The translations under genes and the position numbers were made by a program. A stretch of DNA of 60,025 nucleotides, counting the filler, from Jimgerdemannia flammicorona (Eukaryota): the NCBI GenBank assembly GCA_003990765.1. It is 2 parts of 2 records of this genome, joined end to end, with 100 filler letters (N's around TTAATTAATTAA, not from the genome) between each part and the next. Parts side by side here need not be neighbours in the genome. Positions count along the whole stretch, not along the records: positions 30,065 to 60,025 come from RBNJ01000461.1; 1 more part is not named here. One strand, 5' to 3'. The notes under the pieces were generated by a model, which was given only the letters and a program-made list of their open reading frames with translations, made no database searches and was not told where the DNA came from. Below, piece by piece: positions 9,489 to 59,056 of this stretch. Within the stretch, counting starts at the first letter, position 1. Every line of letters starts with the position of its first letter.

Positions 9489-9653
9489 ATGAGATTAGTG
9501 AGATATTATTATATCTATTTAGGAGTATTAGAGATAGATAATAAGTAGCATAAATGATATAATATATAAAATTTCAAATATATTCAAAGCTTAAGAATAT
9601 ATATTATATACTTAGTTGCTATATCTGAAATATATATATATTTGTAAGCTTGT

Positions 9654-10063: not shown

Positions 10064-10319
10064 TAGATAAAATATATATAAATAAGCTGGCTTTAATAAT
10101 AAAAAACAAATCAAAAATCAAAAATTAAAAAATGATCTCACTTTATAAAAAACTTCAATTCTATATTAATTATCTTTTTAAAGTCTTTGAGAATATAAAT
10201 AATGCTATCAACAAGATTGTCATCTGATTGAATGATGAAAAACCTAAGACTGATAATGAATATAAGAAGAAGAAGAAAATTGAAAAAGTAATTAAGTAAT
10301 TTATTTCAAAGACTATACT

Positions 10320-29964: not shown

Positions 29965-30063
29965 NNNNNNNNNNNNNNNNNNNNNNNNNNNNNNNNNNNN
30001 NNNNNNNNTTAATTAATTAANNNNNNNNNNNNNNNNNNNNNNNNNNNNNNNNNNNNNNNNNNN
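29965..30063. other. Artificial contig linker (N44-TTAATTAATTAA-N43, six-frame stop)
   Basis: N runs flank the standard all-frame-stop spacer; the two sides are 29964 and 29962 bp long. Confidence 0.97.
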
Positions 30064-32160
30064 NCGGCTGCATACAGGTCATATCCAGCTGCTTTCTGAC
30101 TTCCTTTGGTTGGGGCCTTAGCAGTTTGTCTTAACTTGACAAAGTCTAGTATTCTGGTGGTCAGGTTGTTGAGGTGGTGCAGAGTGGTAACAGTTGCTCT
30201 TATTGCTGTTCAGGGTTTTTGGTTAGGGCAGGCACTGGCCATGTGACCTGTCTTTCGATAATAGAAGCATACTCCACTTCTTCGAAGTTTGTTTCTTTCG
30301 CCTTCAGTAAGTTTCTTGAAGGTACTTGGTTGGGTGGATTTATGATTTCTAGGTGTCCAAGAGGTGGATGTAGAGGGAGCTCGGAATGCTTTATGCTTGG
30401 GTTCTTCTTTCTTGGTCCAAGTCTTTTCCTTGTTATTGAATTGTCTTCGGGGCAGAATTGGTCCAGTTGTTAGGATTCACTTGATCATAGTCTTGATTCT
30501 TGCTAAACACCATTATTGGTGATCACAACCAACTGGGCACCCTTGTTCTTGGATTTTTCTAGTAAGCCATTCAGGTAGAGCATCGAATAAATGGTCTGCT
30601 CTTGTATCATTTTGTGCTTCATCATTGGCGATATATCCTAGGCCAATAGTGTTCAGGAGTGACTCAAGTTTTATACAGAAGGTTTCGAATTCTTCTTTGC
30701 CATGTATATCAAATTTGAAGTTGCGGAGTTTTACTCAAGATTCGGCAATTATGGTTTTACTGTGGTATTGAGCATTCATGAGTTGTTTGAGTCCAGGGAC
30801 TGCAGGATGGGCTCCATATTCTGGGGCATTGTTTGCTGCATTCTGAGCAACTACTGCAGGTCGGGTATCCCATGTGAGGGGTTTTTCAGGAAGGGTTCAC
30901 CACCATTCTTCGACAGGTCCTCAGAAGAATGTAACAACTCGGCGGACATAGGCTGTAGTGGTAGCAAAGAGTTGTTCCAGAGTGTGGTCTTAATTGTTTA
31001 TCAGAACATGGTCAGCAACTCGCTCATTAGTCCATTGATTGGCTTCGAAGTTGGTGTCAACTATACTAATGAAGCTTTGGACCTCTTGTGCAGTACCATT
31101 AAAGGTAGGTAGGCTCAGATTTTTTGTAGGTCGGATCTGTTTGGCTAAGGTAGTAATGGTTGCTGCCATTATGGCTACCTGGGCTGTGAGGTCTAGAATC
31201 TGTTGGTTCACTATGTTGTTTACTGGAGGTGGTTGGACTGCTGGTAGTGGTGTTACTGATACTACTTGAGGTACTGGTGCAGAGTGTGATGGGGTTCTTT
31301 GGGTCTGTGTAAGTTGCTAGAGTAGTAGTTGTGGGTCTGGAGTAAGGGCTTGATAGATAACTGTTTGTTACTATGTAGGTGTATTCTGTCCTGATGGGAG
31401 TACGTCTCCTTCAGTGGTATATCCGAGATCGAATTCAGTGAGATATTCCTCCTCTTCTTCAGTTTGGTTCCCGTGTAATTGGGTTTGCTCAGTATCAAAG
31501 TAGACAGAATCAGTTGTATATCTGATTTCAGATGGACTTAATTCAAAGTCAAGTTCCAGTTTGGTATTGATTTCAGATTCAGGTAGGGCTGTAGCAGGGC
31601 CTGCTTCAGGTTCGGTGTCAGGTAGTTGATGAAGGATTTCTCTTGCTTCTTCTTTAAGAATATGGCAGGCCTTGCTGTTCTGGAATCGGTAGTATAATGC
31701 AGTCTTGGTCCTGGTATGGTGAAAATCAGTAGAGTTGAGCCACTTGGCTATAGAGGCTTGGGCTTCATGAGGAACTAAGGCTAGAAAGACTGCTGCTGGT
31801 TGTCCTAGGTTGCTCAGATTTGTGGAGCTGACAAAACTCTTGTTGAGGAGAGTAAAGAAGGCTTCAATAAGATCTTCTTCATCTTGACTTGCTGGGTGTA
31901 GTGCAAGGAGTTCGGTGAATAGGGTTTCACCTATTTGCTGGTTTAACCAGAGTACTTCTTTCTTTGAATGAAGTTTATCCCACTTGTTGCAGGTGTGGAG
32001 GTCAAATTGTCCTTATATGTCAGGTTCAATTCTCTCCAGATTATTAGATGGTTCAGGATAAATTCCAGTTCAGAGGTTGGGCTTTATACCAACTTGTAGG
32101 AATTCTCAGAAGGGTTTGTAGCGAGATGAGAAAGTGTCTTGAAGCAGAATTGGATTGTAA

Positions 32161-32173
32161 ACCGCTGCTACCA
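32161..32173 (-). promoter_or_regulatory. Primer-binding site of family B (TGGTAGCAGCGGT), initiator-tRNA-Met-like
   Basis: 3 nt inside the LTR end; complementary to ...CGCUGCUACCA; also at ~58849-58859. Confidence 0.75.
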
Positions 32174-32176
32174 AGT

Positions 32177-34238
32177 TATAAGAGAATTGCTTTTTAGGGT
32201 AACTGTTACGTAGTTCTGGAAAGGTTTTCTGGATATTCTAGATATTCTGGATGACTGTTTTCTTATGGTCAAGATCAATTTCATATAGAGTATGTCCTCT
32301 ATACTTATTGATTTCAAGTTCGGGTTGATGTCTCAACCAAAGTCCTTCTTTGGAACTAGTTCTGGATGTTCAGGATTTCCATATTTCAGGAAGTTCAAGA
32401 AACTAAGACCAGCTTAGTTGAATCGGCATATTGCTGCAGACAATACCCAATTAGGAATTTTCATAACAGGGTTAGGAGTGGGACCTAATGGGGAGCAGGT
32501 TTACTTAAGAGTGGTTTGTGGATTATTGAATAGGTTTATTCACTATTCATGATATTGCTATACTAGGAGTAGTTGTGTGAAGGGGTATTGTGGGGAAGTA
32601 TTCAGGAATGTTTTTGTGTATTTGAGTCTGAGATTCTGAAGTCTGGGGGAGGGGGTGTTTATACTAGTGAGGGGCTATCTGGACTATGCTAGATATGGAT
32701 ATAGCACTAAGTGCCTTGCTGAGTCGGAATGCAGTCACATAGTACAAGTGTAATCTGATATATCAAGAGATCGTCTGACTGCTGAGTCAGTTCACAGTCA
32801 CATCATACAATGCTAATCTAACTATACTATGACTGCTAGGCTATTTATGGGTTTAGGCACTGTCTGGGTAGTCCTCGATGACATTACCATCGATTGCATT
32901 ATCTCTGATAAAGTAGTCATCTAGGAAGAGTGGTTCACGGATTACTTCTCCTTGTTCGCTGAGGTAATAATACATTGGAACTTCGTCTCTGTCCCACAAG
33001 ATGGCATCATCAGTCTCATATGCTGGATAAGGTGTTGGTGGGCAAAGGAGGGGTACATCATTTTCACTTTCGTTGGATTCACTGTCTGCATACCTTCTGT
33101 AGGTTACAGCACTATGAGTCACAGGGTTATAGTAAGCTGGTGGCTGTGGTTCATGTCACTCATACTCAGGTGGTGGAGTGGTTGGTTCAATCTCGAGGGT
33201 TGTCTGGAGGTACAGATTATATTCTCTGGTCTCTTCATTATAGTTGAAGTAATCAGGGGTGAATGCTGATTGGTATTCGTACCAGTGGTCATTGTCCCAA
33301 TAAGTCTCGTATGTAGTTATGAACTGTTGTAAGTTCATCAGCAAGATTGGCAGAGTGATCAGGGTTGGCAGAGATCCTTGGCTAGAGGTCATGTTGGCAT
33401 CAGAGAGATCATTATCTTCTACTTCATCTTCATCAAAGTGGATTATATTGTAGATATCCTTCATGGCGTATCCAACTTGGGGTATTTGTAGGATATGATC
33501 ATTAGAGTGTGGGAAGGTTCTATCTGTAGTTTCGACATACTTGAGGTACTTCTGGTTGAGTTCTTATATCATGTCATCGATTTGACCATAAGACAGGTAG
33601 CAACCATTTTGCTGGTAGTAACTCGGAGGCAGGGAATAATGGTACTGTACTCATAGAAGAGTTCTCGATGTTTGTGGGTGATGAGCTTCTGGTGTTGAGA
33701 CATCTGGGTAATGTCTGTATCATGGTGGTGTTTGACCATGTCTTCCAGGAGGTGGCCAATCTGGTAGTAGCTTGAGATTTGTCTGATTCGGTGGGCCTTG
33801 CTAAGCATGTTCAGAGCATTCCATTGGGCTTCCATGAAGTAGAGGGGGGCTAGGCTATGGATATTCATGAGGGGCAGAGGGGGTGTGGCTTGGTTGATAA
33901 TGGTATTCCAAATGTCAGTGTGGATATAGGTATAGATCTCAGTAGTCATGTTTGTATGTTTGGAAGTTGTAGTTGTTGTTTGTTTTTAGTTCTCTGGTTC
34001 AATATGTTTCGGTGCTTGGTATATATACATTTGATCCTAATTGGTAAGATTCTGTTTGTGTAAATCTTGTATTCTGTGACTTTGTATTGACTCAGCTTTG
34101 TGCACTGTAACTTTGGTTTGACTCAGCTTCATGATCAAGCAGGTGATTTCCAGATTTGTTCAGAGGTCATATGTGATTTCAGTGGCTTGTTCAGAGGGTG
34201 ACGTATAATTTCAGTGGCTTGGAGGTTGTGCGCTTACA
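32177..34238 (-). repeat. Family B LTR, long type B1 (2062 bp)
   Basis: TGTAAG...CTTACA termini (one mutated to TATAAG); homologous copies at 37229-38184, 44890-46317 and 50567-51458. Confidence 0.92.
32853..33949 (-). pseudogene. ORF embedded in LTR B1 (~365 codons; one frameshift and a few stops)
   Basis: ORF-track pieces 33949-33569, 33464-33156 and 33122-32853 join; the 50.8-kb copy reads through the frameshift (VAILLYGQIDNMIQEL); TATATA ~70 bp upstream. Confidence 0.8.
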
Positions 34239-36368: not shown

Positions 36369-37228
36369 TTCATATAAAGCAAGGACCTGATTCTGATCTT
36401 AATTAATTAGTTGATAGTTTAAACTCCTCTAGCTTCAAAAGTCTCATGGATGAGTAGTTGCTGGTGCTATATCCTTTAGAAAATGGTTCAGACAGATTAC
36501 CTACTGATTAGAGGTCAAGCTGTTATGATTCATAGACTAGAATCTCATGGATAGTCATTATATTTTGCTTCTCTTATATAGGTTCATAGTGCTTCTTGAG
36601 TCTGTTCCTGTATACTATAGTAGACAGTATAGTCTCTGAGAGTTTTCTAAGCCAGAAGGTAGTTCTCTTAATATCTTGTATATAGAAGAGTCCTTCTCAT
36701 TTGGGCTTCAGGTTTCACAACTATAAGGCTTCTATTATATTTCAATACAGTAGGACCTTTTCTCTAATTTGGATAGATTCTAGGGTTTTGTGTATTCTTT
36801 CTTATCAGTATTTGTAACTTGATGATATAATCTTTAGCTTTCTTTCTGATTTAGTATAGTTTCTAGATTTCTGAGTCAATCTATCTCTAAGTTAGGTCTA
36901 GATTTATAGCTGAGATATCATCAGAATCTTCTTCTCTGAAGAGTAGTTCTCTTAGGATAAAGTGTATACTCTATGACTATATATCTCATAGGACAGAGAG
37001 AGTAGTTGGGAGATAGTTATTCCAATTGTCATATGTGTCTGAGATCTTTACCCAGATGTTTTTGAGAGTTTTATTAATTCTCTCTGTCTGTTCATTTTCT
37101 TGAGAGTGATATATGGTGGTCTTGATATACTGAATCTTATATTTCTGATATATTATCTTGTAGAATCCATTGAAAAATTCTGTGCTATAGTCTGTAGTGA
37201 TTTGTCTTAGTGTCTTATAGTAGCAGAT
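36369..37228 (-). mobile_element. Family-A-like integrase/3' fragment, inverted; flanked by a poly(A) run (36349-36368) and a B LTR
   Basis: Reverse complement aligns with 44745-44889 plus 46323-47050 and has no LTR at the CAGAC site. Confidence 0.85.
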
Positions 37229-38184
37229 TATAAGAGGGTTACTTATTAGAGTAACTGTTACATAGTTCTGGAAGAGTTTTCTAGAAGTTCTGAATATTCT
37301 GAAAGATCATTTTCTTAAGATTAAGATCAATTTCATATAGAGTACATCTTCTATACTTATTGATTTCAAAATTAGATTAATGTCTCAACCAAAGTCCTTT
37401 TTCAGACTAGTTCTAGAGATTCAGGATTTTCCATATTTCAGGAAGTTTAAGAAACTAAGGTCAGCTTAGTTGAATTGGCATATTGCTGCAGACAATACCC
37501 AATTAGGAAATTTTATAATAGGGTTAGGAGTGAGATCTGACAGAGAGCAGATTTACTTAAAAGTGGTTTGTGGGTTATTAAATAGGTTTATTTGCTATTT
37601 ATGATATTGCTATACTAGGAGTAGTTGTATAAAGGGATATTGTGGAGAAGTGTTCAGAATTGTTCTTGTCTCTTTAAGTCTGAGATTCTGAGATCTAGGG
37701 AGGGAGTATTTATACTAGTGAGGGGCTATCTGGACTATGCTGAATATGGATGTAGCACTTAGTGCCTTGCTGAGTATGTTCAGGACATTCTATCAGATCT
37801 CTATAAAGTAGAGAGATGCTAGGCTATAGATATTCATGAGGGGTAGGAGAGGTATGGCTTGGTTGATAATGGTATTTCAAATGTCAGTACAAATATAGTT
37901 ATAGATCTCAGTGGTCATATTTATATATATATTCAAGAGTTGTAGTTGTTTGTTTAGTTTGTTGTGGTTCTTCATTTCAATATATAGAGTTTTCAATATA
38001 TATATTTTTGGTCCTAATTGGTAAGATTCTGTTTATATAGATCTTATATTCTGTGACTTCAAGTTGACTTAGCTTTGTAATCTATAACTTTAGTTTGACT
38101 TAGTTTCATGATCTTACATGTGATTTTCAGATTTATTCTAAGAGTGATATGTAATTTTAGTGGCTTGGAGATTATATACTTACA
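37229..38184 (-). repeat. Family B 3' LTR, internally deleted (956 bp), with adjacent PPT
   Basis: TATAAG...CTTACA ends; polypurine tract on the - strand at ~38185-38200. Confidence 0.88.
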
Positions 38185-38784
38185 ACTCTTCTCTTCTTAG
38201 CTTTTGATATCCTCATTGAGGTCTTCATTTTTGATCTAGTATTATTATACCATTTGGATGATCAAAAGTCTGATAATATCTTTTTTTCTCAGAAAGTAGC
38301 ATGCTTATAGTATAGTTATCTAATGTGTTGAATTTATATATTAAAGGGTCATATGTTCAATATCATATATCAGAAGTAATTCTGATATCATTTACTACTA
38401 GAGAATTTCCTTTAAGGAATCTTCTTAAATATCTATGTCTCATTTCTCACTAGTGGTATGGAAAGAATAGGCTGGCTTTCAGTTTTGCTATTTTTCTAAA
38501 GGATCATATTCTTTTATCTTGACTTACCAAGTTCTTGATTATTGTAACAGTGACTCCAGAATGATGACATCAGCACAGGAGACAGCCTTTCCTTACAAGC
38601 CACCAGATCAGAACACAAGAAGATCATATGGTATACAAGATGAGCAATGATGACCAACTGTGAGTCATTGTGACCACAGTATAAGCATCCTGAAGAATAT
38701 AAAAGAAGGATCAAGGAACTGCAGTAGCAGCAACCAACAAGAACCACCAATCCCAAATTAGCTCAAAGACTTACCATAAATAAA

Positions 38785-39600
38785 ATACCTACTGCCTGCT
38801 AAACCTCAAGGTCAAGAAACCACCAAAGTATCTCAGTTGAAGAAAGGATGTTCCAAGACATCAGAAGAGCCATGAGGACCTGCTCAAGAAGGACTCCTAG
38901 TGTCAACCTGGGTACTGCAGACCCCTATCACTTTATCCTCTACCACTATGAAATGGAAACAAGGATCACCATTGCTACTGAATGCCTCCAAATATAGCAG
39001 GAGTATGAAATAGGAAACCTCCTCTGCTAGGAGTTCCCACAGACCAGCCCTCAAGAGCTACAAGATGCCACTCTCATGGACATTTGTGAGACAAGAATGG
39101 TCAAGAAGATCCATCAGATCTTCAGGCATGCACTATGGTCAATCCCCAACTTGGAGTATATTAGAGTCTCAGACTTCAAAGACCTGTCATCCCACCATAT
39201 CAATGCACTAGAAGCCAGGGTGGCCACAGAAGCTCAGTCCACTATCACCCTCAACAATGATGAAGTAAAAGACTTCTGGCATCTCATCCTTCAGGATAAC
39301 CCACACCAATTCCTGCAAGGATTGATCGCAGTATTCCAAGGCCCAAGCATCTAGGTTAGACCTCCCCAAGACCCCACATTTGTCCCTTATTTTGTAGAAG
39401 AGAACCTCATAGACTGGAGAGCCCCAGACCTCCTCCCCACTGCCAAACATGATGATGTCATTGGCAATGATGTCATCCTATGCAACATCAAAGTACACAA
39501 AATGTGCAACCTACATAATGAATTCATGGATCTCATCTCCTTCAGTGATGATGATGATAATGATGATAAAGTCCCCATAGTCCTGAACTTTCTACTCTAA
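38785..39600 (+). pseudogene. ORF embedded in family A 5' LTR (start mutated to ATA)
   Basis: Colinear with 47452-48261; TATAAAA at ~38698. Confidence 0.8.
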
Positions 39601-42600
39601 GTTCTTTGTTATACTAAATAATGCCAGCACTGGTATTCTGATGTAACACTGGATAATATCAGCACTGATATTCTGAGGTGATGCAAAATTGTTCCAGCAC
39701 TGGTATTCTGATGTAATACTAAATTATACCAGCATCCTGAACCTGTACAACCATCAGTACCGACCCTGGAACTTAGTAGTTTTAGTTATTGAAATTTATA
39801 TTTAGCTTTATATCTTAGCAACCATTGAATTATATTTTGTATAAATACTCCTCTTATTTCCTCTGAAATAAAGTCAGTTCCAGTTTCACTTACACACACT
39901 TCCTTACAAGTAATCTAAGAGATAATAAGACAGTTAAAGATAAGAAGTTTGAGGACTATAAGATCTTGGGAAGGCACTCCAATAAGAACTTGCTTATAAC
40001 AAACTTGAGTTAGTCTAAGAGATATATCTTGAAGAAAATCTGGCATATTTGAAGGACTTAGCAACTACTATGTGACAACTTGGTGCCCATTGGCTGGTGA
40101 TTCAAGATAAATCCCTCACTTTCAAGCTGAAAAACAAACAACCCCCACAACAACTACCCTGACTACAAGAGTCGCTCCTGCAAGAATTCAAAACAAGATG
40201 GAAATGTGTTCTCCTACATTCTATGAATATACTACTGAAGAGTCAATCCTGACCTTCATTGAAGACTTTGAACAATTTGCCACCATACAAGCCCTTGGTG
40301 TGGATACTCAATTGGCCCTTCTACCAGTCAGCCTCAGAGGACCTGCCAGAGACAAGTTCAATGCAGCCACTATTACTAATACTAGTGCAGCCAAACTTGC
40401 CAACATGAAGACCTTTCTCAGAATAATATATTATACCAAAGAGATCAAGCAAGCTCTCAAGAATCAACTCAATACTATCTGTCAGAGACTTAGTGAAGAT
40501 CCCAACTCATTCTATACCCAAATCTGCCACTAGATTGTCTTGGTTGGCTATGATGACCACCTCAAGGAACAAATAGCAGATTTAACTTTCCTTAAAGAAG
40601 TTCACTCTGAAATTGCCCTAGCAATCTGGTCTACCCTAGCTGCACTGACTCTTGATCAGAAAGTGGTCTTTGCACAGAGATATTGGACTACCAGATACCC
40701 TGCCAAATACTCAATAGAGAAAATAACTGGAATCAAGATAGAGCCATCAAAGCCAACTAGTATCTTACCCGCCACAGTTGTAAACAGACAACCAACCCCA
40801 CTTACCCCCAAGACAGCCAAAGCTGAACCAGTGGAAGAACTCACCAAGCAGTTTGCTGAGATGACTGCACACCTTGGTGATGTTGTTAGAGAAGTCTGAA
40901 GTGCCAACAGGAGACCAGTGCAGAGATTTGCAGCTGCTACAGAAGAATACAATATTACATGCTTCAGATGTGGAGAAGAAGGCCACTATGTAAAGAATTG
41001 CTTGACCAAAACAAGACACAAAGCCCAACCAAGCAATGCTAGCAGAACTAGAGAAAAAATCAATGCAGTAGTCATCGAGGAGATTGGTGACACTGATGAT
41101 GAAGAATACTATGAGGAGCTTGAATTCTACCCTGCTACTGAAGGTACCAGAACCTGGTCCAAGCCCTATGACAAGAAGAGCAACAGCAAGCCAGTTAGAA
41201 GACCAAAGAAGACTCCAGCCATCACTATTCAAAGCAAGACCCAACCTGAGGAGATTGATCAAGACATAGAGTTAGATGAAGCTGCCTGCTAAATTATTGA
41301 AGACACTACTCCAGTCTCAGGAGAAAGTAAAAGCAAGAAGGAACAGAAGCTGCACAAAACCAAGATCCATCAGTATGATATCTACAAGGACCTCAAGGAA
41401 CAGAAGATCAATGCTACCTTTGGACAACTAGCTGAAGTCCCTGCCTTCAGATAGCAGTTGAGAGTAGGACTTGCAACTATTACTAAGAATCAAAAGTACA
41501 AGATTGTAGAAGCTCATAATGCAGGAAGAATCTGAGAACTCAGGTAAAGAATCCAAAGACTAGCGCAAGACATCAGCCTATACTCCATGTCAGATTGAAG
41601 ACTGTATCTTTGATTCCATCATTGATACTGGTACTGGAGGATACCTCATAAGCAAGAAGGCAATTGACTGCCTAGGCTGGGACATTGAAGAGTCTACCAA
41701 GATGGTCTATATCACAGCAGATGGTATACGAGCTACTCCTCTTAGCAAAATCTGAGAAGTCCCCATCAAGATAGGAGGAGCTATATACCATCCCAGTAGA
41801 CATAATTGTTATAAGCACCACCAACTATGACATCCTCATTAGCAACCAATGGCTTCATAAGGCCAAGGCCATCATTGACCTCAATGTCCAGAAGATGCAG
41901 ATCAACTACAGAGGAAGAAAGGTACAAGTTTCTATCAATGTTCATAAAGGAGTCCTATCAGACATGGAGAAAGGAGATGAAGAAGATACAGGTCTTCATG
42001 CACTTAGTGAATAAGAACAAGAACAAGACACCCAAGCTCACAGATGAGCAGTGGTACAACAAGATCATTGATGGCTATGCCCCTCAAGAAAGATGCCCCC
42101 ATAGTACTAGGATGTACTGCTCTGAACACCTGAATGACTGCTGGTCTTATATCAGTGAAATCAGGAAAATCCATCAATAGAAACATGAGCAAGAAGCTGC
42201 TGAAGCAAAAAGGAAAGCTGAAGAAGATGACCAGCCCCCAGAGCTCCAAGCTGACAGCAATGATGAGGAGGAACAAGAATCAGACATCACCCTCAAGGTC
42301 AAGAAGTTTCACCCTGAAGCCAAGATCCCAGAATATAAGACTGAAGGAGCCATAGGAATGGACCTTGCCAGCATTCAAGATGCTACCCTCAAACCACAGA
42401 CCACTACCCTACTTGGTACTGAAATTGGAGTCAAGCTGCCAGAGAACTATGCCAGAATTATCAAGACCAGGAGCAGTCTGGCCAAAAGCGAAATCTCAGT
42501 TAAAGGAGGAGTAATTGACCCTGATTACACTAGTGAGATCTTCCTCATAGTCAGAAATCACAACCACACCACCCCCTTCAAAGTCAAGAAGCATGACAGG

Positions 42601-44889: not shown

Positions 44890-46317
44890 TGTAAGAGGGT
44901 TGCTTTTTAGGGTAACCGTTACATAGTTCTGGAAGGGTTTTCTGGAAGTTCTGGATATTCTGGAAGACTGTTTTCTTATGGTCAAGATCAATTTCATATG
45001 GAGTACATCCTCTACGCTTATTGATTTCAAGATTGGGTTGATGTCTCAACCAAAGTCCTTTTTTGGACTAGTTCTGAATGTTCAGGATTTTCCGTATTTC
45101 AGGAAGTTCAAGAAACTAAGACCAGCTTAGTTGAATTGGCATATCGCTACAGACAATACCCAATTTGGAAATTTCGTGATGGGGTTAGGAGTAGGACCTA
45201 ACAAGGAGCGGATTTACTTAAGAGTAGTTTGTGGATTATGGAATAGGTTTATTTGCTATTTATGATATTGCTATACTAGGAGTATTTGTGTGAAGGGGTA
45301 TTGTGGGGAAGTGCTCAGGAGTTGTGTTCGGATTGTTCGAGTCTGAGATTCTGAGGTCTGGGGGAGGGGGTATTTATACTAGTGAGGGGCTATCTGAACT
45401 AGGCTAGATATGGATGTAGCACTAAGTGCTTTGCTGAGTCGGAATGCAGTCACATAGTACAAGTGTGATCTGATATGTCAAGAGATCGTCTGACTGCTGA
45501 GTCAGTTCACAGTCACATCATATAAGGCTAATCTAACTATATTATGACTGCTAGACTATTTATAGGTTTAGGCACTATCTGGGTAGTTCTCGATGATATC
45601 ACCATCGATTGTATCATCTCTGATGAAGTAGTCGTCTAGGAATAATGGTTTGCGGATTACTTCTCCTTGTTGGCTGAGGTAATAATACATTGGAACTTCA
45701 TCTCCATCCCACAGGATAGTATCATCTGTTTCGTATGCTAGATAAGGTGTTGGTGGGCGAAGAGCTTCTGGTGTTGAGACATCTGGGTAATGTCTGTATC
45801 ATGGTGGTGTTCGACCATGTCTTCCAGGAGGCAGCCGATCTGGTAGTAGCTTGAGATTTGTCCGATTCGGTGGGCCTCACTAAGCATGTTCAGGGTGTTC
45901 CATCGGGCTTCCACGAAGTAGAGGGGTGCCAGGCTATGGATATTTATGAGGGGCAGAGGGGGTGTGGCTCAGTTGACAATGGCATTCCAAATGTCAGCGC
46001 GGATGCGGTTGTAGATCTCAGTGGTCATGTTTGTGTGTTTGGAAGTTGTGGTTGTTGTTTGTTTTGGTTCTCTGATTCGACACGTCTCGGTGCTCAGTAT
46101 ATATGCATTTGGTCCTGATTGGTAAGATTCCGTTTGTGTAGATCTTGTGTTCCGTGACTTTGTATTGACTCAGCTTTGTGTGCTGTGACTTCGGTTTGAC
46201 TCAGCTTCATGATCAAGCAGGTGATTTCCAGATTTGTTCGGAGGTCGCATGTGATTTCAGTGGCTTTGTTCAGAGGGTGACATGTAATTTCGGTGGCTTG
46301 GGGGTTGTGCGCTTACA
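44890..46317 (-). mobile_element. Family B solo LTR (1428 bp, ~634-bp internal deletion) inserted in family A integrase
   Basis: TGTAAG...CTTACA; 5-bp TSD CAGAC (44885-44889 / 46318-46322); integrase GNGQT|ERTNK is restored on removal. Confidence 0.97.
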
Positions 46318-47451
46318 CAGACAGAGAGAACCAACAAGACCCTCAAGAACATCCTAGCAAAGATCTCAGAGATATATGAGAATTGGGATAACTACCTCCC
46401 AACTGCCCTCTCTGTCCTATGAGATATACAGTCACAGAGCACACACTTTATTCCAAGAGAGCTACTCTTTGGAGAAGAAGATTCTGATAGAACATCAGCC
46501 ACAAATCTAGACCTAACTTAGAGATGGGTTGATGTAGAAATCCAGAGACTATACTAAATCAGGAAGAAGGCTGAAGATTACATCATCAAGTCATAAGTAC
46601 TGACAAGGAAGAATGCAGAAAAGAATCATAAGGCCCTAGAACCCATCCAAATCAGAGAAAAGGTTCTACTGTATCGAAATATGGTAGAAGCCTCATGGTC
46701 ATGAAAACTGGAGCCCAAATGGGAAGGACTCTTCTATATGCAAGATATCAAGGGAACTACCTTCTGGCTTAGAAAAATCTCAGGGACCATACTGCCTACC
46801 ACGGTATATAGGAACAGACTCAAGAAGTACTATGAACCTATATAAGAGAAGCAAAACATGATGACTGCCCATGAGGTTCTAGTCTGCAAATCATAACAGT
46901 ATATCCCGTGACCAGCAGGCTATCTGTCTGGACCATTCTCTAAGAGATACAGTACTGGTAACTACTTATCTATGAGACTTTTGAAGTTAGAGGAGTTCGA
47001 ACTATCAACTGATTGGTCAAGATCAGAATCAGGCCCTTGCTCTATATGAAGGGAGCAACCCTTCACCATTATGCCAAAATACAAAGGGAAGATGCCAGCC
47101 AATAAATACCACTTTTCGACCCCTTGCCAGAGGTTATAGGATCAGCAAATTTCTCAGGACTGGACCAATGAATAAGGATGCTTAGAAAGATCCTTATTTA
47201 GGAGGAAGATGTAATGGTGACTCCAGAATGATGACATTAGCACAGGAGACAGCCTTTCCTTACAAGCTACTAGATTGGAACACAAGAAGATTATATGGCA
47301 TATGAGATGAGCAATAATGACCAACCATAAGTCATTATGACTACAATACAAGCATCCTGAAGAATATAAAAGAAGGATCAAGAAACTGCAGTAGCAGCAA
47401 CCAACAAGAATCACCAATCCCAAATTAGCTCAAAGACTTACCACAAATGAA

Positions 47452-48261
47452 ATGCCTGCTGCCCACCAAACCTCAAGGTCAAGGAACCACCAAGGTATTT
47501 CAGTCAAAGAAAGAATGTTCCAAGACATCAGAAGAGCCATGAGGACCCACTCAAAAAGGACTCCTAGTGTCAACCTGAGTACTGCAGACCCCTATCACTT
47601 TATCCTCTACTACTGTGAAATGGAAACAAGGATCACCATTGCTATCGAATGCCTCTAAATATGGCAGGAGTACAAAATAGGAAACCTCCTCTGCCAGGAG
47701 TTTCTATAGGCCAGCCCTTAAGAGCTACAAGATGTCACTCCCATGAATATATATGAGACAAGAATGGCCAAGAAGATCTATCAGATCTTCAGGCATATAC
47801 CATGGTTGATCTCCAACTTGGAGTATATTAGAGTCTCAGACTTCAGAAATCTGTCATCCTGCTGTATCATTGTACTAGAAGCCAGGGTGGCTACAGAAGC
47901 TCAGTCCACAATCACCCTCAATAGTGATGAAGTAGAAGACTTCTGGCATCCCATCCTTCAGGATAATCCAGACCAATTCCTGCAAAGATTGATCTCAGTA
48001 TTCCAAGGCCCAAGCATCCAGGTTAGACCTCCCCAAGACCCCACATTTGTTCCTTATTTTGTAGAAGAGAACCTCATAGACTGGAGAGCCCTAGACCTCC
48101 TCTCCACCACTGAACATGATGACATCATTGGCAATGACATCATCCCATGCAATATCAAAGTATGTGAAATGTATGACCTATATGATGAATTTACAGATCT
48201 CATCTCCTTCAGTGATGATAATGATGATGAAGCCCCCATAGTCCTGAACTTTCTGCTCTAA
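47452..48261 (+). pseudogene. ORF embedded in family A 3' LTR (270 codons, 3 in-frame stops)
   Basis: ORFs 47452-47658 and 47743-48261 are in the same frame; the stops correspond to CAA/CAG in the other LTR; TATAAAA ~85 bp upstream. Confidence 0.85.
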
Positions 48262-48738
48262 GTTCTTTGTTACACTAAATAATGCCAGCACTGGTATTCT
48301 GATGTAACACTGGATAATACCAGCACTGGCATTCTGAGGTGACATGAAATTGTTCCAGCACCAGTATTCTGATGTGATACTAAATTATACCAGTATCCTG
48401 AACTTGAACAACCATCAGTGCTGACCCTGGAACTTAGTAGTTTTAGTTATTGAAATTTATATTTAGCTTTATATCTTAGCAACTATTGAATTATATTTTG
48501 TATAAATATCCCTCTTATTTCTTCTGAAATAAAGTCAGTTCTGGTTTCACTTACATATACTTCCTTGCAAGCAATCTAAGAGATAACAAGATAGTTAAAG
48601 ATAAGAAGTTTGAGGACTATAAGACCTTGGGAAGACACTCCAATAAGAACTTGCTTATAACAAACTTAAGTTAGTCTAAGAGATACACCTTGAAGAGAAT
48701 CTGGCATATTTGAAGGACTCAGTGACCACTATGTAACA

Positions 48739-50540: not shown

Positions 50541-50566
50541 ACAATAGCTGACATTTCCTTTTTATA

Positions 50567-51458
50567 GATTGTAAGTTTATCAGCAAGGTTGGCAGGATGA
50601 TCAGAGTTGGTAGGGATCCTTGGCTTGAGGTCATATCAGTATCAGAGGAATCATTGCCTTCTGCTTTATTATTATCAAACAAGATTATATTATAGACATC
50701 CTTCATGGTATATCCAACTTGGAGCATTTGCAGAATATAGTTATTGAGATGTGGGAAGGTTCTATCTGTAGTTTGAATATACTTGAGATACTTGTGGTTG
50801 AGTTCTTGTATCATATTATCAATTTGGCCATATAATAATATAGCAACTATCTTAGCAGTAGTAACTCAAAGGCAGGGAATAAAGGAGCTATACTTATAGA
50901 AGAGTTCTTAGTGTTTACAGGTAATGAGTTTCTAGTGCTAGGATATCTGAGTAATGTCAGTATCATAATAGTATTTGATTATATCCTCCAGGAGGCAGCC
51001 AATCTGATAGTAGCTTGAGATTTGTCCAATTCAGTTGGTCTTACTAAGTATGTTCAGAGTATTCCATCAGACTTCCATAAAGTAGAGGGGTGCCAGGCTA
51101 TAGATATTCATAAGAGGCAGAGAGAGTATGGCTCAGTTAACAATGGCATTCCAAATATCAGTGTAGATATAATTGTAGATCTCAGTGGTCATATTTGTAT
51201 ATATATTTAAGAGTTGTGGTTATTTGTTTTGTTTGTTGTAGTTCTCTATTTTGACATATCTGATACTTGGTATATATGCATTCAGTCCTGATTGGTAAGA
51301 TTCCATTTGTATAAATCTTGTGTTCTGTAACTTCAAGTTGACTCTGCTTTGTACACTGTGACTTTTGTTTGACTTAGCTTTGTGATCTTGTATGTGATTT
51401 CCAGATTCATTTAGGGAGTGATATGTGATTTCAGTGGCTTAGAGGTTGTGTGCTTATA
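50567..51458 (-). repeat. Partial family B1 LTR (5' portion with N-terminal half of the LTR ORF)
   Basis: Aligns with ~33325-34238; ends CTTATA. Confidence 0.85.
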
Positions 51459-53971
51459 GATGTTTACTGGACACTCCTCTGTTTCTGAGCACCCCATACT
51501 TTCCCTGCCTCTTCTCAAAAACACTGAGCCTCAGACTTCAGTCTATACTACTAGTCTCTAATACTCAGACCTGCCTCCTTCTATGTTACAATCTGGAACT
51601 AAATCCTTCTCACTCAGGAATTCCACAGATTAGCTTTATCTAACAGAGAGGAGTTCAGATACCAATGTTCAGGCCCCTTCTACTTTCTCCAAACCTCTCT
51701 CTTCCCTGGATACCCTAATGATCTGACCAGGGGCACTATTCTATCTTCACTCTCTTCCAGACCATCTCCCCCCAACACTCAGCAGTCAAAACCCAATCAA
51801 TTATAGAGCCCAGCCCTCCTGTCCAATATGTGTATATCTGATATTCACTACCTTGTAGTCTCACAGTATCCATCAGAACACCAAGCCTCTCAATCTCCTC
51901 TCAGTTCTCCATCCCTCTACTTCTCTCTGATATCCTCCTTCTGCTATCTGTCCTGTCCAGTCTGCAATTCTAGACTATATTAAAGCAGTCCACCCCAGCC
52001 CCCACCAGAGCACCAGAGTTCTACAATACCTATATCTATTCCACTCTGATCCCTCTCTCTGCCAGACAGTAATAAAAAACTACAACTATATTACCCCAGT
52101 CTGGCCTCTACCACAACCTCTACACCAATCTGCTCTCTTAATATCCAATGTCTCCAATGTCCCCCTTCCCCCTTCTGATCAATATTCCCACCTTTTTCTA
52201 CCATATAACTGCCCCTCCCTCACCTTCTCATCCATTCCAATCTATTAACCTCAACCTCATACTATATATTCTGAAGTAGATACATATATATCTGCATCTA
52301 GTTTTCTCAGCCAGTCAAAGATATTATAATATCTCTCTGTTCTGCAAAGCCCATTCACATTTATAGAGAATATGTTGGTTATACTGTTCATATTGAATAA
52401 TGTTATAGAGGTATAGACTCACTCTATAATTTCATACTCACATTCTCTCCTACCATATCTAAGTTCTACTCAGCCTTGACCTCAGCCTCTAATTCCTGCT
52501 GTTCATCCAGAGCCACCAACAACTCTATATAATTCTCTCCATCTATTATTTCTATAAATACATTGTACTCCTCATACACTACCTACCATTTTGCCAGCCC
52601 ATTTCTTGGCCCCCACAGATATACTGCCTGATTATTTACAATATCCAAAAAAGTTGCCTCTTGGGTCACATCTATCTCATACTCTTTCTCTTTTAACAGT
52701 ACTATCATCATCTCATTCCTCAGCTTCCTCACCACTCTCTCACCCTATAGTACTTCTCCCCAGAAGGCCTCACTGATCACTTGAAAGTCTACCTCACCCA
52801 ACTTCTCTACCACTACATTCATCATTGTCTTCTACAGCTACTTCTCACCACCAACTGCCTCCTCTCTCTGCTAACTCCTGCTCTCTAGCTCCCTTGCCCT
52901 CCCCCTTCTCAGTCCTCTCAGATTTGTCTCATCTATTCTCTGATATATCCTACAGCTCCTCCTCTCTAATGCCAGATACTCCATACTAAATTGAAGCATC
53001 CTCTACCATCTCTATATCTGCTGAACTTCTGACCCTTAGTACTCTCCTGGTCTTCTCCTTGCTTCCCTATCCTAGCCCATATGTTAGCCCTCACACCCTC
53101 TTTACTAGCCACCTTGGCTTCCTTCTGGACTCCTCTCAGGCTCATCAATAACTCCTTCTGTACCTTCCTCCCCTGTGCCTTCTCCCAGAGAGCCCAGTCC
53201 ATCTGTATCTTCTTGCTATTGATGATCTCAACTACTGTCCTAGCCTCATACTTCTTCCAAGCCATCTACCTCTTCTTGACTGCTCCTACTGTATCCTCTA
53301 GTACCTCTAGCAGGTCCTTCTCCTCCTCTAGCATTTCTATCATTCTCAATACCTTATATTCCACCAGTCTCCACCTCAGCACTACCAGCTAGTCTCTCTC
53401 TTTCTCAGTATTCTCCTTCTCTATTAGCCTTACCCTAATATCCACATCTCTAGTTCTGAGCTCTGTCTCCTCCCAGACTCGAAATCTAACATCTACAAAC
53501 TCCTTGACTATATCCTCTATCAATTGCCTAGCTCTCTCCATTTTGACAGTTAGCACATTGGCCATCACCAGCTATACCACCTAGGGATCCCAGCACATAC
53601 ACCTCATCATTGGAACCACTACTCCTCTGATCTCTAGCCCTATCTCCAAAGCCCCCAATAATAGCTCCTCTTTCTCAAAGCCTATCTCTACTGACTTGAG
53701 CTTTTTCAAAAACTTCACTGAGGTTACACCTTTTATTTTCTTTGCCAAGAGCCCCAGTACCATCTTTGCTGTCACTATCAGACCCCAGAAGTATATTGTG
53801 ACTGTGAATTTGAATTTCAACTTCTTGAGTAACAGTACTGCTATCAGCTCTGTCACATCTTCAGCAAGATTACTAGGTCTTATACTCTTTCCATAACTCA
53901 GTCTACTATCAGCAGTCTTATTTAGATTTTTTTCCAGATTGCTCATTACACTCTCTTCAGCAGTTACTTCT
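51459..53971 (-). mobile_element. L1/Tx1-like LINE remnant (ORF1 plus AP-endonuclease of ORF2)
   Basis: MNSITNIFSINVNGL..IFDWLRKLDADI at ~52385; VPWSDH; GPEHWYLNSSLL; basic ORF1-like region 53946-52500. Confidence 0.78.
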
Positions 53972-56900
53972 TGTAAGAGGGTTGCTTTTTAGGGTAATCA
54001 TTACATAGTTCTGGAAGAGTTTTCTGGAAGTTCGGGATGTTCTGGAAGATCTTTTTCTTATGGTCAAGATCAATTTCATATGAAGTACATCTTCTATGCT
54101 TATTGATTTCAAGATTAGGTTAATGTCTCAACCAAAGTCCTTTTTCGGACTAGTTCTGGATGTTCAGGATTTTCTGTATTTTAGGAAGTTCAAGAAACTA
54201 AGACCAGCTTAGTTGAATTGGTGTATCACTGCAGACAATACCCAATTAGGAAATTTCATGAGAGGGTTAGGAGTGGGACCTAACAGAGAGTGGATTTACT
54301 TAAGAGTGAGTTGTGGGTTATTAAATAGGTTTATTTGCTATTCATGATATTGCTATACTAGGAGTAGTTGTGTGAAGGAATATTGTGGGGAAGTGCTCAG
54401 GAATTGTGTTCAGATTGTTCAGGTCTGAGATTCTGAGGTCTGGGGGAGGAGGTATTTATACTAGTGAGAGGCTATCTGGACTATGCTAAATATAGATGTA
54501 ACACTTAGTGCCTTGCTGAGTTGGAATGCAGTCATATAGTACAAGAGTGATCTGACATATCAAGAGATCATCTGACTGCTGAGTCAGTTCACAGTCATAT
54601 CATACAAGACTAATCTAACTATACTATGACTGCTAAGCTATTTATAGGTTTAGACACTATCTGGGTAGTCTTCAATGACATCACTATTGATGACATCATC
54701 TCTAGCAAAGTCTGAGCAGTTTTCTGACTTCTGACATCATCAGTTTCAAGATGTTGTCACTTCTATCTCTTGTAAGATTAAGGCTGTCCTTAGTGGCAGT
54801 GGTTGCACAAGGATAACAGGTCTTGGTTTTCTTTTTTTTTTGGTCTGCTGGTATATTTATAAGGACTGGCCATTCTTGTCTAGAGTGAGGGCTCCCAATG
54901 TTGCAGCTGGGGGTTTGAACCTCTTGGAAATGATATTTTCTGTAATCCAAGACAATTTCTAGTAGTAATATCTGTCATATGGATAGCTTGAGATTGGTTT
55001 TGATGATGTTGGCTTTCTTGAGTTCAGATGAAGCATCCATCACTCTCCAACAGAGGTGATACAAATAGAGCAAACGAAGTTGTTCAAATGTATTTTACTT
55101 CTGCTAAGTAATGAGGTCTTGTATAGTCACAGTGTATCTTGGTCTTGAGTTGATAAGTGCAGTTCATGAACCTTTTGATAGATGAGATAGGGTTCTTCTT
55201 ATCTCAATTTGAGTTTGGTACTTTTGGTTTCCTTTTGTAATAATACAGTATACCAAACTAGTTATAGTGGTTTGGAGTCAGTCTTGTGGTTATAGTACTT
55301 CTTCTAGTATTCTTGTATCTTGGCAGTAGGTTCTCGTGCTTGCTGGCGTATTTAATGTAACCAGATGATCTCTTCAGTAACTTATTTTGTAGTCTCATAT
55401 GTGGTTTCTAAATTAGTTCTGAGGATGCTATGCAATTTTGGTGGCTTGGAGGTTGTGTGCTTACAACTCTCTCCTTCTTAGCTTTTGACATCCTCATCAG
55501 GGCCTACTAATTTGTTCTGGTGTTGTTGTACCATTTGGATGGTTCTTGTGGTTGTATTTGTTGAGGATTTGTTCAAATTTGTATTCTTCTTGGTCATTAA
55601 TAATAACAGATACAGGTGGTTCTGTGGTTCGATTCAGAAATGTGTCTTGGGCTTTCTGGAGTAGTGGTCTGACATGGCTGTCAACTTTGGAAAAGTCTTC
55701 TTCAGAGTTCTCAGGTTCTCCTTTGGATAGATAGATGGAGATAGCAAAGAGAGGGCATTTCTTGACCAATTTCTTAAGTTGTAGCTTGTTGATGTAAGTG
55801 ATCTTTGGTCCAGGGTCACTAGAATTGAGTGGGTCCTTTTTGCCTTATAGTTTGAAGTTATGGCATCCTTTCTTGATGGTCAGAGAATTGTTTACCCAAT
55901 CAATCATAGAGTTCTCTTGTTTCAACCATAGGGTTCCAAGGATGATTTCATTATCAGGAAGTGGTACAATCTGGAGGGTAATATGTACTTCGTAGTCTCC
56001 AATTCGGAAGGGTAGGTTGTGGACTTCTCTGCTAATATGTAACATGTGAGGTTCCATCAGCTGTGGCAACTGCTTGAGTTTGTTGTACTGGAGAGGTGAA
56101 GACCTTAAGTCTATTGACTGTTTCTTCATTAATAAAGTTGCCTGAGGCACCACTGTCTATTATAATCTTAACAGGTGCTCAGTTGATAAAAGCTTTAAGT
56201 GTAAGTAGTTTGTCTGATCCAATAGTGGTGATTTCAGTTATAGGAGCTTTCCTTCTATTGGTTCTTCTTTATGCCAGTTCATTGACACAAGAGAAGCAAT
56301 TATCAATTATTCGGGAAGAGTACATTCCAATGCCATGAGGGCATTGGCCACTTGGTATATATCCATCTTTGATCTTCTTGTAGAATTGTTCTTTTTTGCT
56401 CATAGTAGATTGGGCTGAGGTCTTGTTCGATGAGCCAAATCCTTTGGATCCTTGGATGGTAGGTAGTAGTTCAGGGACTTCCTTGACTATCAGGGTTGAC
56501 TCAATTTTTTCAAATAGGATCTGGGCAATGTAGAAACCTATAGGGATCTTGAAGGGTGTCCAACTATGGTTTCGGATGAGGACAATAATTTCACCTGTGT
56601 AATCCTTGTCAATGACTCCTCCTTCTACTAAGAGTTCCTTCAATGCTAGGCTGCTGTAACAGCATATTCTTTCAACATGTCCCTCAGGAATTTGGATACT
56701 GATTCCTGTATAGACTTGCTTGACTTCTCAGTTGGAAACTGTAGCTTCTTCAGCTGCATACAGGTCATATCTGGCTGCTTTTTGACTTTCTTTGATTGGG
56801 GCCTTGGCAGTTTGCCTTAACTTGACAAAGTCTAGTGTTCTGGTGGTCAGATTGTTGAGTGGTGCAGAGTGGTAACAGTTGCTCATGTTGCTGTTTGGGG

Positions 56901-58978
56901 TTTTCAGTTAGGGCAGGCACTGGCCATGTGTCCTGTCTTTCAGCAATAGAAGTATGCTCTGCTTCTTCGAAGTTCATTTCTTTCACCTTTAGTGAGTTTC
57001 TTGAAGATACTTGGCTGGGTGAGTTCATGACTTCTGGGTGTCCAAGAGGTAGATGTAGAGGGAGCTCAGGATGCTTCATACTTGGGTTCTTCTTTCTTGG
57101 TCTAAGTCTTTTCCTTGTTGTTAAATTGTCTTCAGGGCAGAATTGGTCCAGCTGTTAAGATTTGCTTGACCATAGTCTTGATTCTTGCCAGGCACTATTG
57201 TTGGTGATCACAACCAACTGAGCAGCCTTGTTCTCAGATTTTTCTAGTAAGCCATTCAGGCAGGGCATTGAATAAATGGTCTGCTCTTGTACTATTTCAT
57301 GCTTCATCATTGGTGATATATCTTAGGCCAACAGTGTTCAGGAGTGACTCAAGTTTGGTACAGAAGGTTTTGAATTCTTCTTTGCCATGTACATCAAATT
57401 TGAGGTTGTGGAGTTTTACTCAGGATTCAGCAATCATAGTTTTGCTGTAGTATTGAGCAATTATGAGTTGTTTGAGTTCAGGGGCTGCAGGATGGGCTCC
57501 ATATTCTGGGGCATTATTTGCTACATTCTGAGCAACTACTGCAGGTCAGGTATCCCATGTAAGGGGTTTTTCAGGAAGGGTTTGCCACTATTCTTCAGCA
57601 GGTCCTTGGAAGAATGTAACAACTTGGCAGACATAGGCTGTAGTGGTAGCAAAGAGTTGTTCCAGAGTGTGGTCTTGATTGTTTGTCAGAACACAGTCAG
57701 CAACTCGCTCATTGGTCCATTGATTGGCTTCGAAGTTGGTGTTAACTACACTAATGAAGCTTTGGACTTCTTGTGCAGTACTATTGAAGGTAGATAGGCT
57801 CAGATTTTTGGTAGATCAGGTCTGTTTGGCTAAGGCAGTAATAGTTGCTGCCATTATGACTACCTGGGCTGTGAGGTCTAGAATCAGTTAGTTTGCCATA
57901 TTGTTTACTAGAGGCAGTTGGACTACTGGTAGTAGTGTTACTGGTACTACTTGAGGTACTGGTGCAGAGTGTGAGGGTGTTCTTTGGGTCTGTGTAAGTT
58001 GCTGGAGTAGTAGTTGTGGGTCTGGAGTAAGGGCTTGATAGATAGCTGTTTGTTGCTATATAGGTGTATTCTGTCCTGATGGAGGTACTTCTCCTTCACT
58101 GGTGTATCTGGGATCAAATTCACTGAGATACTCCTCCTTCTCTTCAGTTTGGTCCCCATGTAATTGAGTTTGCTCAGCATCAAAGTAGACAGAATCAGTT
58201 GTATATCTGATTTTGGATGGACTTAATTCAAAGTCAAGTTCAGGTTTGGTATTAGTTTCAGATTCAGGTAGAGCTGTAGCAGAGCCTGCTTCGGGTTTGG
58301 GGTTGGGTAGTTGATGAAGGATTTCTCTTGCTTCTTCTTTAAGAATATGATGGGCCTTGCTATTCTGGAATCAGTAGTATAATGTGGTCTTAGTTCTGGT
58401 ATGGTGAAAGTCGGTAGAGTTGAGCTACTTAGCTATAGAGGCTTGAGCTTCATGAGAAACTAAGGCTAGAAAGACTGCTGCTGGTTGTCCTAGGTCGCTC
58501 AGATTTGTGGAGCTGACAAAACTCTTGTTGAGAAGAGTAAAGAAGGCTTCAATAAGACCTTCTTCATCTTGACTTGCTGGGTGTAGAGCAAGAAGTTCAG
58601 TGAATAGGGTTTCACCTATTTGCTGATTTAACTGGAGTATTTCTTTCTTTGAATGAAGTTTGTCCCACTTGTTACAGATATAGAGGTCAAATTGTCCTTA
58701 TACATCAGGTTCAATTCTCTCCAGATTGTCAGATGGTTTAGGATAAATTCTAGTTTAGAGGTTGGGCTTGATACCAACTTGTAGGAATTCGCAGAGGAGT
58801 TTTATAGCTGGGTGAGGAAGTGTCTTGAAGCAGAATTGGATTGTAAACTACTGCTACCAAGTTGTAAGAGAGTTGCTTTTTAGGGTAACTGTTACATAGT
58901 TCTAGAAGGGTTTTCTGGAAGTTCTGAATATTCTGGAAGACTGTTTTCTTATGGTCAAGATCAATTTTGTATAGAGTA

Positions 58979-59056
<78 letters not shown>

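Follow-up and report, generated by a model that had tools for sequence, protein, structure and literature searches.

Long terminal repeats (LTRs) are usually taken to be non-coding control regions and are masked as such in genome annotation. What, then, is to be made of a long open reading frame (ORF) that lies in sense orientation inside the LTRs of a Ty3/gypsy retrotransposon in the fungus Jimgerdemannia flammicorona? We address this question for a stretch of 60,025 nucleotides (nt) of that genome (assembly GCA_003990765.1; hereafter the window), which holds members of two Ty3/gypsy families termed A and B, and we concentrate on the family B LTR. The ORF is probably a decayed accessory gene, running in sense orientation inside the U3 (unique 3') region of this LTR. 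It was open in the ancestors of the family and evolved under constraint at the level of the protein; the copies in the window were later ruined by C-to-T and G-to-A hypermutation, by the loss of one nucleotide and by deletions. The relevant features of the first family B copy, B1, are as follows:

32177..34238, minus strand: B1, 2062-nt 5' LTR of a Ty3/gypsy element of family B, with the ends TGTAAGC...CTCTTATA (located by end pattern, flanks and self-BLAST)
34020..34027, minus strand: TATATA(TA), candidate promoter of the ORF itself, 78 nt ahead of its ATG (33949)
32853..33949, minus strand: decayed sense ORF of ~365 codons (N-terminal frame 33949->33572, C-terminal frame 33596->32853)
32658..32663, minus strand: TATAAA, candidate main LTR promoter at the border of U3 and R (the repeated region), 190 nt past the ORF stop
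32535..32540, minus strand: AATAAA, candidate polyadenylation (poly(A)) signal at the border of R and U5 (unique 5')
32160..32173, minus strand: primer-binding site (PBS) of tRNA type, TGGTAGCAGCGG, adjoining the B1 LTR end
30067..32176, minus strand: 5' internal region of the B1 element, with leader and gag-like ORF (31374-32012), 90% identical to 56753-58986

An initial annotation of this DNA had described a 2.06-kb LTR that carries two TATA elements and an ORF of 365 codons. The LTR measures 2062 nt (34238->32177, minus strand) and both TATA elements are present (TATATA at 34027-34020 and TATAAA at 32663-32658). The ORF stands in part: the frame path exists and contains far fewer stops than expected by chance, with 2 internal stops in 365 codons as opposed to 36 for the worst frame across this span, but one nucleotide has been lost near 33595 and stops interrupt the path at 33566-33564 (TAA) and 33158-33156 (TGA), which leaves open pieces of 126, 102 and 89 amino acids (aa).

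The repeats that carry this frame are genuine LTRs, because they possess TG...CA ends, a PBS, a polypurine tract (PPT) and a solo copy flanked by a 5-bp target duplication. Family B LTRs start with TGTAAGC and finish with CTCTTACA; the terminal inverted ends read TGTAAG...CTTACA in the copies B2 and B4b, while B1 finishes in ...CTTATA and thus differs by one transition. The PPT, AAGAAGGAGAGAG, is found upstream of B4b, and the ~2.1 kb behind the B1 PBS recurs beside B5. The outer boundary is visible in public sequence data as well: when contigs of four public sequencing runs were aligned to B1 at 80% likeness, their cover stopped at 34238, the start of the B1 LTR, and in runs X2 and X3 PPT-like loose contig ends adjoin this position. 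Self-BLAST within the window matched the B1 LTR to four further copies, which comprise the following parts:

44890..46317, minus strand: B2, solo B LTR within element A, with the target duplication GTCTG on both flanks
46028->45756 and 45756->45571, minus strand: ORF remnants of B2, with a 622-nt out-of-frame deletion within the ORF
37224..38184, minus strand: B3, B LTR with a ~1.07-kb internal deletion, of whose ORF only the first 65 codons are left (37918->37724)
50566..51491, minus strand: B4a, 5' part of a B LTR, with 209 ORF codons (51192->50566) in a single frame and 7 transition-type stops
53972..55465, minus strand: B4b, ORF-less variant LTR whose middle differs and in which only the last 19 codons are left (54709->54653); it is the 3' LTR of a second B element
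58863..60025, minus strand: B5, 5' LTR paired with B4b in one element and likewise ORF-less, of the same variant, extending past the window end

The empty target site of B2 is present in a second A-type internal copy, with a 6-nt overlap at 37086-37091. The segment that supplies this unoccupied target (36369-37231) is an inverted fragment of the second A-type internal region.

B4a reads on across the B1 frameshift in a single frame, for 209 codons, and an extra G behind 33595 occurs in contigs of three of the four runs aligned to B1. All 16 in-frame stops in the A and B copies of the window align to Gln (Q), Arg (R) or Trp (W) in relatives, and each of them is one C-to-T or G-to-A step away from a sense codon. 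The peptide VATLSYGQI, quoted in the initial annotation, is a read-through of the B1 frameshift and agrees with the database protein P0001.

The differences between copies carry the imprint of a protein. Among the B copies they are distributed over codon positions 1, 2 and 3 within the ORF as 54/22/74 (chi-square p=1e-6), whereas the parts of the LTR that flank the ORF are flat in five of six comparisons (p>0.5), the sixth giving p=0.013. The two LTRs of element A served as a control pair:

38543..40077, plus strand: A1, 5' LTR, 1535 nt, with a sense ORF at 38848-39600 (250 codons, 3 TAG stops)
47210..48738, plus strand: A2, 3' LTR paired with A1 in a single A element; its ORF (47515-48261) has 3 stops

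A1 and A2 were identical at insertion and therefore display mutation alone, that is, post-insertion decay; here the distribution is 32/26/22 (p=0.39). Codons with a single difference are synonymous and non-synonymous in a ratio of 46:46 among the B copies, compared to 14:41 in A1/A2 (Fisher p=0.005). Relatives outside the window are few. The N-terminal 126 residues of the B protein matched P0001 alone, at 81% identity, in a phmmer search of 1.84 billion representatives; P0001 is a copy of the same element, and it keeps Arg codons at sites where the window copies carry His (H), Cys (C), Q or stops. The C-terminal 247 residues matched P0002 at 61% identity; this protein is fully open over 247 aa and its gaps are in-frame only (1 of 76 candidates). 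Parts of the B LTR were found in 10 listed sequencing runs from 7 studies, mostly soil metagenomes, and in four runs hundreds to thousands of short contigs cover the LTR, ORF included, often with G/C where B1 has A/T. This abundance, together with G/C at the A/T sites of B1, indicates that the family is common in some soil fungus or fungi and that B1 is a mutated member of it. The contigs of run X9, guessed to be RNA, lie on parts of the ORF and, in larger number, on the last 400 nt of the LTR, and we draw no inference on expression from them. Because B4a is continuous, because the stops derive from Q, R and W codons, because the codon periodicity is confined to the inside of the frame and because a 61%-identical relative is open, we conclude that the B ORF is a former genuine protein-coding gene that is now dead in this window.

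The position of this gene within the LTR follows from the signals around it. Counted from the start of B1, TATATA lies at offset 212, the ATG at 290, the stop at 1386, TATAAA at 1576, AATAAA at 1699 and the LTR end at 2062, which leaves ~210 nt before TATATA, 123 nt between TATAAA and AATAAA and a further ~360 nt to the LTR end, where the PBS follows. The upstream TATATA is also found in B2 (offset 215), and each of the three B LTRs examined (B1, B2 and the ORF-less B4b) retains the downstream pair of TATAAA and AATAAA. The family A LTR has its signals in the same order, with TATAAA at offset 156, the ATG at 306, the stop at 1058, TATAAA at 1298 and AATAAA at 1325. The ORF is tentatively placed in U3 because the conserved TATAAA and AATAAA lie beyond its stop, and we infer for the B LTR a U3 of ~1.6 kb that contains the entire ORF, an R of ~0.1 kb and a U5 of ~0.35 kb.

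Three other accounts of the frame have to be set against that of a U3 gene. One of them takes the upstream TATATA for the actual LTR promoter and the ORF, situated in R/U5, for a leader ORF, the first cistron of the full-length RNA; a TATATA 78 nt before the B1 ATG that is kept in B2, and a TATAAA 150 nt before the ATG in family A, are what this arrangement would predict. It leaves aside the TATAAA and the ensuing AATAAA beyond the stop, a pair that the ORF-less B4b retains without the upstream TATATA, and it implies an R/U5 of ~1.8 kb, which would be unusually long for an LTR element; we deem it unlikely. Another account regards the ORF as a fragment of a host gene, or as a piece of another mobile element, that was captured into U3 and does nothing for the retrotransposon. 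Variation between LTRs falls precisely on the ORF segment, which is replaced by other sequence in B4b and B5 and affected by deletions in B2 and B3, and the gene is dispensable in cis, as capture would have it. No host-type relative turned up, however: the single match to the N-terminus is a copy of the same element, the C-terminus has one match as well, and neither Pfam nor PDB returned any; moreover, the codon-periodic divergence among copies bespeaks constraint while the gene resided in the LTR, and a second element family has a gene of the same layout. Capture without function is distinctly unlikely. The most sceptical account holds that there never was a gene, merely a chance open frame in a non-coding U3, stitched together from pieces that are broken in every window copy, that contain no known domain and whose structure models are poor. 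It fails to explain why the copies differ codon-periodically only within the frame, why a relative at 61% identity should be open across 247 codons, why each of the 16 stops traces back by a transition to a Q, R or W codon and why the path contains so few stops in comparison with the worst frame, and we regard it as close to refuted.

A number of observations nevertheless weigh against a U3 gene, or at least against a simple version of it. No intact copy of the ORF exists in the window, and no full-length B protein exists in the libraries, where P0001 represents the N-terminus only and P0002 the C-terminus only. P0001 terminates, after ...GQIDDMI, at the exact codon of the B1 TAA (33564-33566), and some lineages may therefore encode only a 128-aa part; the TAA may be common to a subfamily, or the P0001 record may simply end there. 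The extra G at 33595 is seen at whole depth in run X2 but in a minority in X1 and X3, and frameshifted copies may therefore have spread. The protein libraries contain called ORFs only, whereby open copies are pre-selected and conservation looks inflated. The promoter and poly(A) assignments are assignments of hexamer motifs only. The ORF-less LTRs (B4b and B5) and those with deletions (B2 and B3) indicate that the LTR can dispense with the gene, which is hence not required in cis. Finally, what is said below on the fold and the function of the product is guesswork, as the models are poor.

If the gene lies in U3, reverse transcription would copy it to both ends of the element, and each insertion would consequently hold the gene twice while a solo LTR would keep one copy. 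Transcription of the ORF could proceed from its own upstream TATA to the poly(A) signal of the LTR, or the ORF could be expressed as a 3' cistron of the element RNA. At its N-terminus the product would have a helical domain of ~125 aa, followed by a long acidic tail in which Tyr and Pro abound; its isoelectric point (pI) would be ~4, and it would have no membrane segment. The highest Kyte-Doolittle mean over 19 residues is 0.97, and no hydrophobic segment is present. The proteins of both families are acidic (pI 4.0-4.6), and their tails, which the initial annotation had pointed out and which are evident in the composition at the ends of both, bear a net charge of -10 to -13 per 40 residues with bulky hydrophobic residues interspersed. 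The B protein is rich in Tyr and Pro, and the A protein begins with an Arg-rich, basic stretch. On account of the acidic tails and composition and of the position directly upstream of the LTR promoter, we tentatively propose, as a rather doubtful assignment by analogy, that the product might be a nuclear regulator that stimulates the adjacent, downstream LTR promoter, in the manner of Tas of the foamy viruses or Tax of human T-cell leukaemia virus (HTLV). A factor for RNA export or one that counteracts silencing by the host may be alternatives of equal standing.

Database searches with the LTR proteins returned little else. Pfam contained no family at E<=1 for the LTR proteins, the B1 pieces, P0001 and P0002 included, save for a match of the database relative P0009 to NpmA, which at 14 bits falls far under the cut-off of 60 and was rejected; a sequence search of the PDB found no relative of the LTR proteins. 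In the ESM Atlas the A protein reached 0.86 to basidiomycete hypothetical proteins, under the lead level of 0.9, and the B protein 0.93 to mixed clusters of phage, bacterial and plant-virus proteins with a low feature count, which we consider unrelated. The B1 tail contains PPEY, a PPxY motif that is absent from P0002 and was given no weight. We also considered whether the alternative middle present in the B4b/B5 LTR might hold a gene of its own and discarded the idea, as all three frames contain 10-13 stops per ~247 codons.

The family A LTR ORF is a genuine protein-coding gene too. Six open relatives share 59-79% identity with it, and a profile of the family gathered nine relatives at 36-85% identity, including P0010, which aligns at 36% across its full length. 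Conserved blocks in the family alignment comprise W-EYEI, AKKIHQ, LWNPILQD-PDQ, GPPIR and PYF..I-WR, and the insertions and deletions are in-frame and located in the acidic tail. Element A itself (38543-48738, plus strand) has LTRs of 1535 nt with the ends TGTAAC...GTGACA, its own PBS (TGGTGCCCATTGG) and PPT, and gag and pol domains including zf-CCHC, dUTPase, RVT_1 and Integrase_H2C2.

Are the A and B genes related? The initial annotation had proposed an LTR-borne accessory gene family shared by two element lineages whose LTR DNA and PBSs differ, on the grounds of a spaced pattern of peptide motifs, and had added a resemblance to expanded proteins of Glomeromycota and Mucoromycota. The motifs are all located where it had put them, the LTRs of A and B have no blastn match at E<=1e-6, and the PBSs are indeed distinct, TGGTAGCAGCGG in B and TGGTGCCCATTGG in A. 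A coding gene in each of the two LTR families is likewise upheld, while their relatedness is suggestive only. The resemblance to an expanded family found no support, given that the B N-terminus had one match among 1.84 billion representatives, a copy of the same element; in total there is one relative for the B N-terminus, one for its C-terminus and nine for the A profile.

That the two genes share an N-terminal domain by descent has, in our judgement, an even chance. The alternative, that they were acquired independently and that unrelated proteins converged on one layout (a sense ORF that starts ~300 nt into U3 and encodes a helical head with an acidic tail), we find about evenly plausible. 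Pairwise scores favour independence: in Smith-Waterman comparisons the B protein attains z=2.7 against A1, with 9 of 300 shuffles equal or better, and z=0.4 against A2 (103 of 300), values at the level of chance. The first profile-profile alignment of A and B with hhalign yielded P=0.093 and a probability of 0.6%, and with the N-terminal domains alone the score was reached by 8 of 200 column shuffles. Once distant relatives, among them the 36%-identical one, had deepened the A profile, P improved ~35-fold, to 0.0026, with a score of 29.9; the alignment comprises 118 collinear columns (A 24-144 with B 8-126), begins at the same start and keeps the register first read by eye. This score was reached by 1 of 250 column shuffles, as opposed to 13 for reversed profiles and 13-17 for the gag-region ORFs of both elements, all of which argues against independent origins. 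The hhalign probability of homology is nonetheless just 11.7%. When the A hidden Markov model (HMM) was run over a six-frame translation of the window the best non-self match was the B1 N-terminus, a point in favour of kinship; the HMM cross-matches have E = 0.37 (this match) and 3, values that speak for independence. AlphaFold models are poor, with a predicted local distance difference test (pLDDT) score of 34 for A and 51 for B; both are all-helical, and under the profile alignment the helices of these low-confidence models coincide, which favours common descent. Between the C-terminal parts, which make up two thirds of the proteins, no similarity beyond acidity was found.

The elements that carry the two genes also differ, in LTR DNA, in PBS and in the order of dUTPase and protease, and this too sits well with independent acquisition. 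In tblastx comparisons of the A and B elements only two segments matched, with 38-39% identity, one in dUTPase and one in protease, and the two families have them in opposite order: in A (42181-42969, plus strand) the protease precedes dUTPase, and in B (56272-56727, minus strand) dUTPase precedes the protease. These two are the pol domains found in the internal region of B, the remainder of which is deleted. The initial annotation had contrasted a chromovirus with a non-chromovirus lineage; this contrast was not confirmed, as a Chromo domain was not detected at E<=1 in three frames of the decayed 3' pol ends (A 46317-47209 and B 55499-56301, B being internally deleted). We also rejected the notion that the LTR gene is a diverged gag, since hhalign of either LTR protein against the gag-region ORFs of either element gave P = 0.15-0.45.

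Protein-coding genes in or near LTRs have precedents among retroviruses. The superantigen gene sag of mouse mammary tumour virus (MMTV) is an ORF in the U3 of the LTR, and its product Sag is a type II membrane glycoprotein. By position it is the closest analogue of the B gene, which would resemble it in being a sense ORF of ~320-365 codons that is wholly in U3, upstream of the main promoter, and would therefore occur in both LTRs and in solo LTRs. Unlike Sag, which belongs to a vertebrate betaretrovirus, the B protein is devoid of a hydrophobic segment and of any Pfam match, and there is no sign of kinship between the two. Foamy-virus Tas (Bel1) has its own internal promoter and an acidic activation region and drives the LTR promoter, and HTLV Tax is likewise regulatory. 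Being retroelement genes with a regulatory role and a 3' location, they furnish the working model for the B gene, although they lie mainly upstream of or overlapping the 3' LTR rather than wholly in U3 and have no sequence similarity to it.

Fungal elements offer nearer, if partial, parallels. A frame named brtn in the Botrytis gypsy element BcGypsy1/Boty reportedly runs antisense. It is described as an extra ORF, beside gag and pol, without known function (PMC8365987), and an 'add. ORF' is marked in fungal gypsy elements in the legend to Figure 3 of a second study (PMC2864245); in contrast to the B gene, neither is placed within the LTR in the passages that describe them (PMC8365987, PMC2864245). 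Gypsy elements bearing dUTPase are on record for basidiomycetes, namely PosPlaTy3 of Postia placenta and elements of Phanerochaete (PMC2864245). The placement of dUTPase varies between PosPlaTy3-3 and PosPlaTy3-5, much as it does between A and B, yet unlike A and B these elements are not credited with an LTR gene in the passages that treat them (PMC2864245). In the crapaud element of Podospora the LTR subfamilies differ in their 5' half and the copies are blurred by repeat-induced point mutation (RIP) (PMC10787394). The B LTR variants similarly have the 3' part in common and diverge within the 5' (U3) part; an ORF is not mentioned for the crapaud LTR in the passages that treat it, while in B the variable part is a gene in some variants (PMC10787394). 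A sense ORF within the LTR of a fungal retrotransposon was not found described in open-access full text, with the reservation that the supplementary element table of PMC2864245 may list some.

What would such a gene mean for the elements and for their hosts? With a conserved gene in U3, each insertion and each leftover solo LTR would be a potential expression unit for an element protein, and fungal LTR retrotransposons would possess regulatory genes as complex retroviruses do. Repeat masking would at the same time conceal the protein family from fungal proteomes. If the kinship of A and B is true, the gene either moved between element lineages or predates their split, and either argues for a function of importance to the element. 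The furthest-reaching possibility, to which we accord somewhat less than an even chance, is that two otherwise unrelated gypsy lineages share homologous U3 genes, in the form of a mobile cassette, exchanged between lineages and maintained by selection, that encodes a new class of regulator (a transactivator of the LTR or a blocker of host silencing) and that even solo LTRs would express.

The window is of fungal origin, and its two halves differ. Positions 1-29 kb hold host genes, including TAP42, an RTA1-like protein, a Zn2Cys6 factor and lipin, and from 40 kb onwards there are pieces of zf-CCHC, dUTPase, RVT_1, integrase and aspartyl protease (Pfam searches of 49 long frames). The 30-60 kb portion consists of nested LTR elements of the Ty3/gypsy type that are heavily transition-mutated. 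The ratio of observed to expected CpG is 0.11 in the repeat nest (30065-60025) versus 1.04 in the genic part (1-29000), and the G+C content is 39% versus 47.5%. Between the LTRs of element A there are 147 transitions versus 6 transversions, mainly at CpA/TpG. This transition bias and its sequence context point to hypermutation of the copies that is RIP-like or driven by deamination or methylation, and this RIP-like or methylation-driven hypermutation is confined to the repeats.

The architecture of the nest has several further peculiarities. Two runs of 44 N (29965-30008 and 30021-30064), which we read as assembly gaps, truncate the B1 element and leave it with 2.1 kb of internal sequence. B3 is the 3' LTR of a family B element that is split immediately upstream of this LTR by a 10.7-kb block containing element A (38261-48952); the interrupted B sequence (38112-38260) resumes at 48953-49052, as judged from a contiguous match to 55393-55641. 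Stretches of 282 and 214 nt lie between those B pieces and the ends of the A LTRs. The element bounded by B5 and B4b has lost nearly all of its reverse transcriptase, ribonuclease H and integrase (55466-56301, minus strand), the protease being followed within ~150 codons by the final pol residues and the PPT. B5 contains a homopolymer of 69 T at 58986-59054 (poly-A on the element strand), ~120 nt before the 3' end of the LTR, which was not found in the other B LTRs. Three segments, 34240-36368, 48739-50565 and 51492-53971, matched no part of A or B and had no Pfam match in the long frames tested. In the genic part, a short and diverged tandem or direct repeat lies at 9653-10070, with 76-80% identity at an offset of ~60-220 nt.

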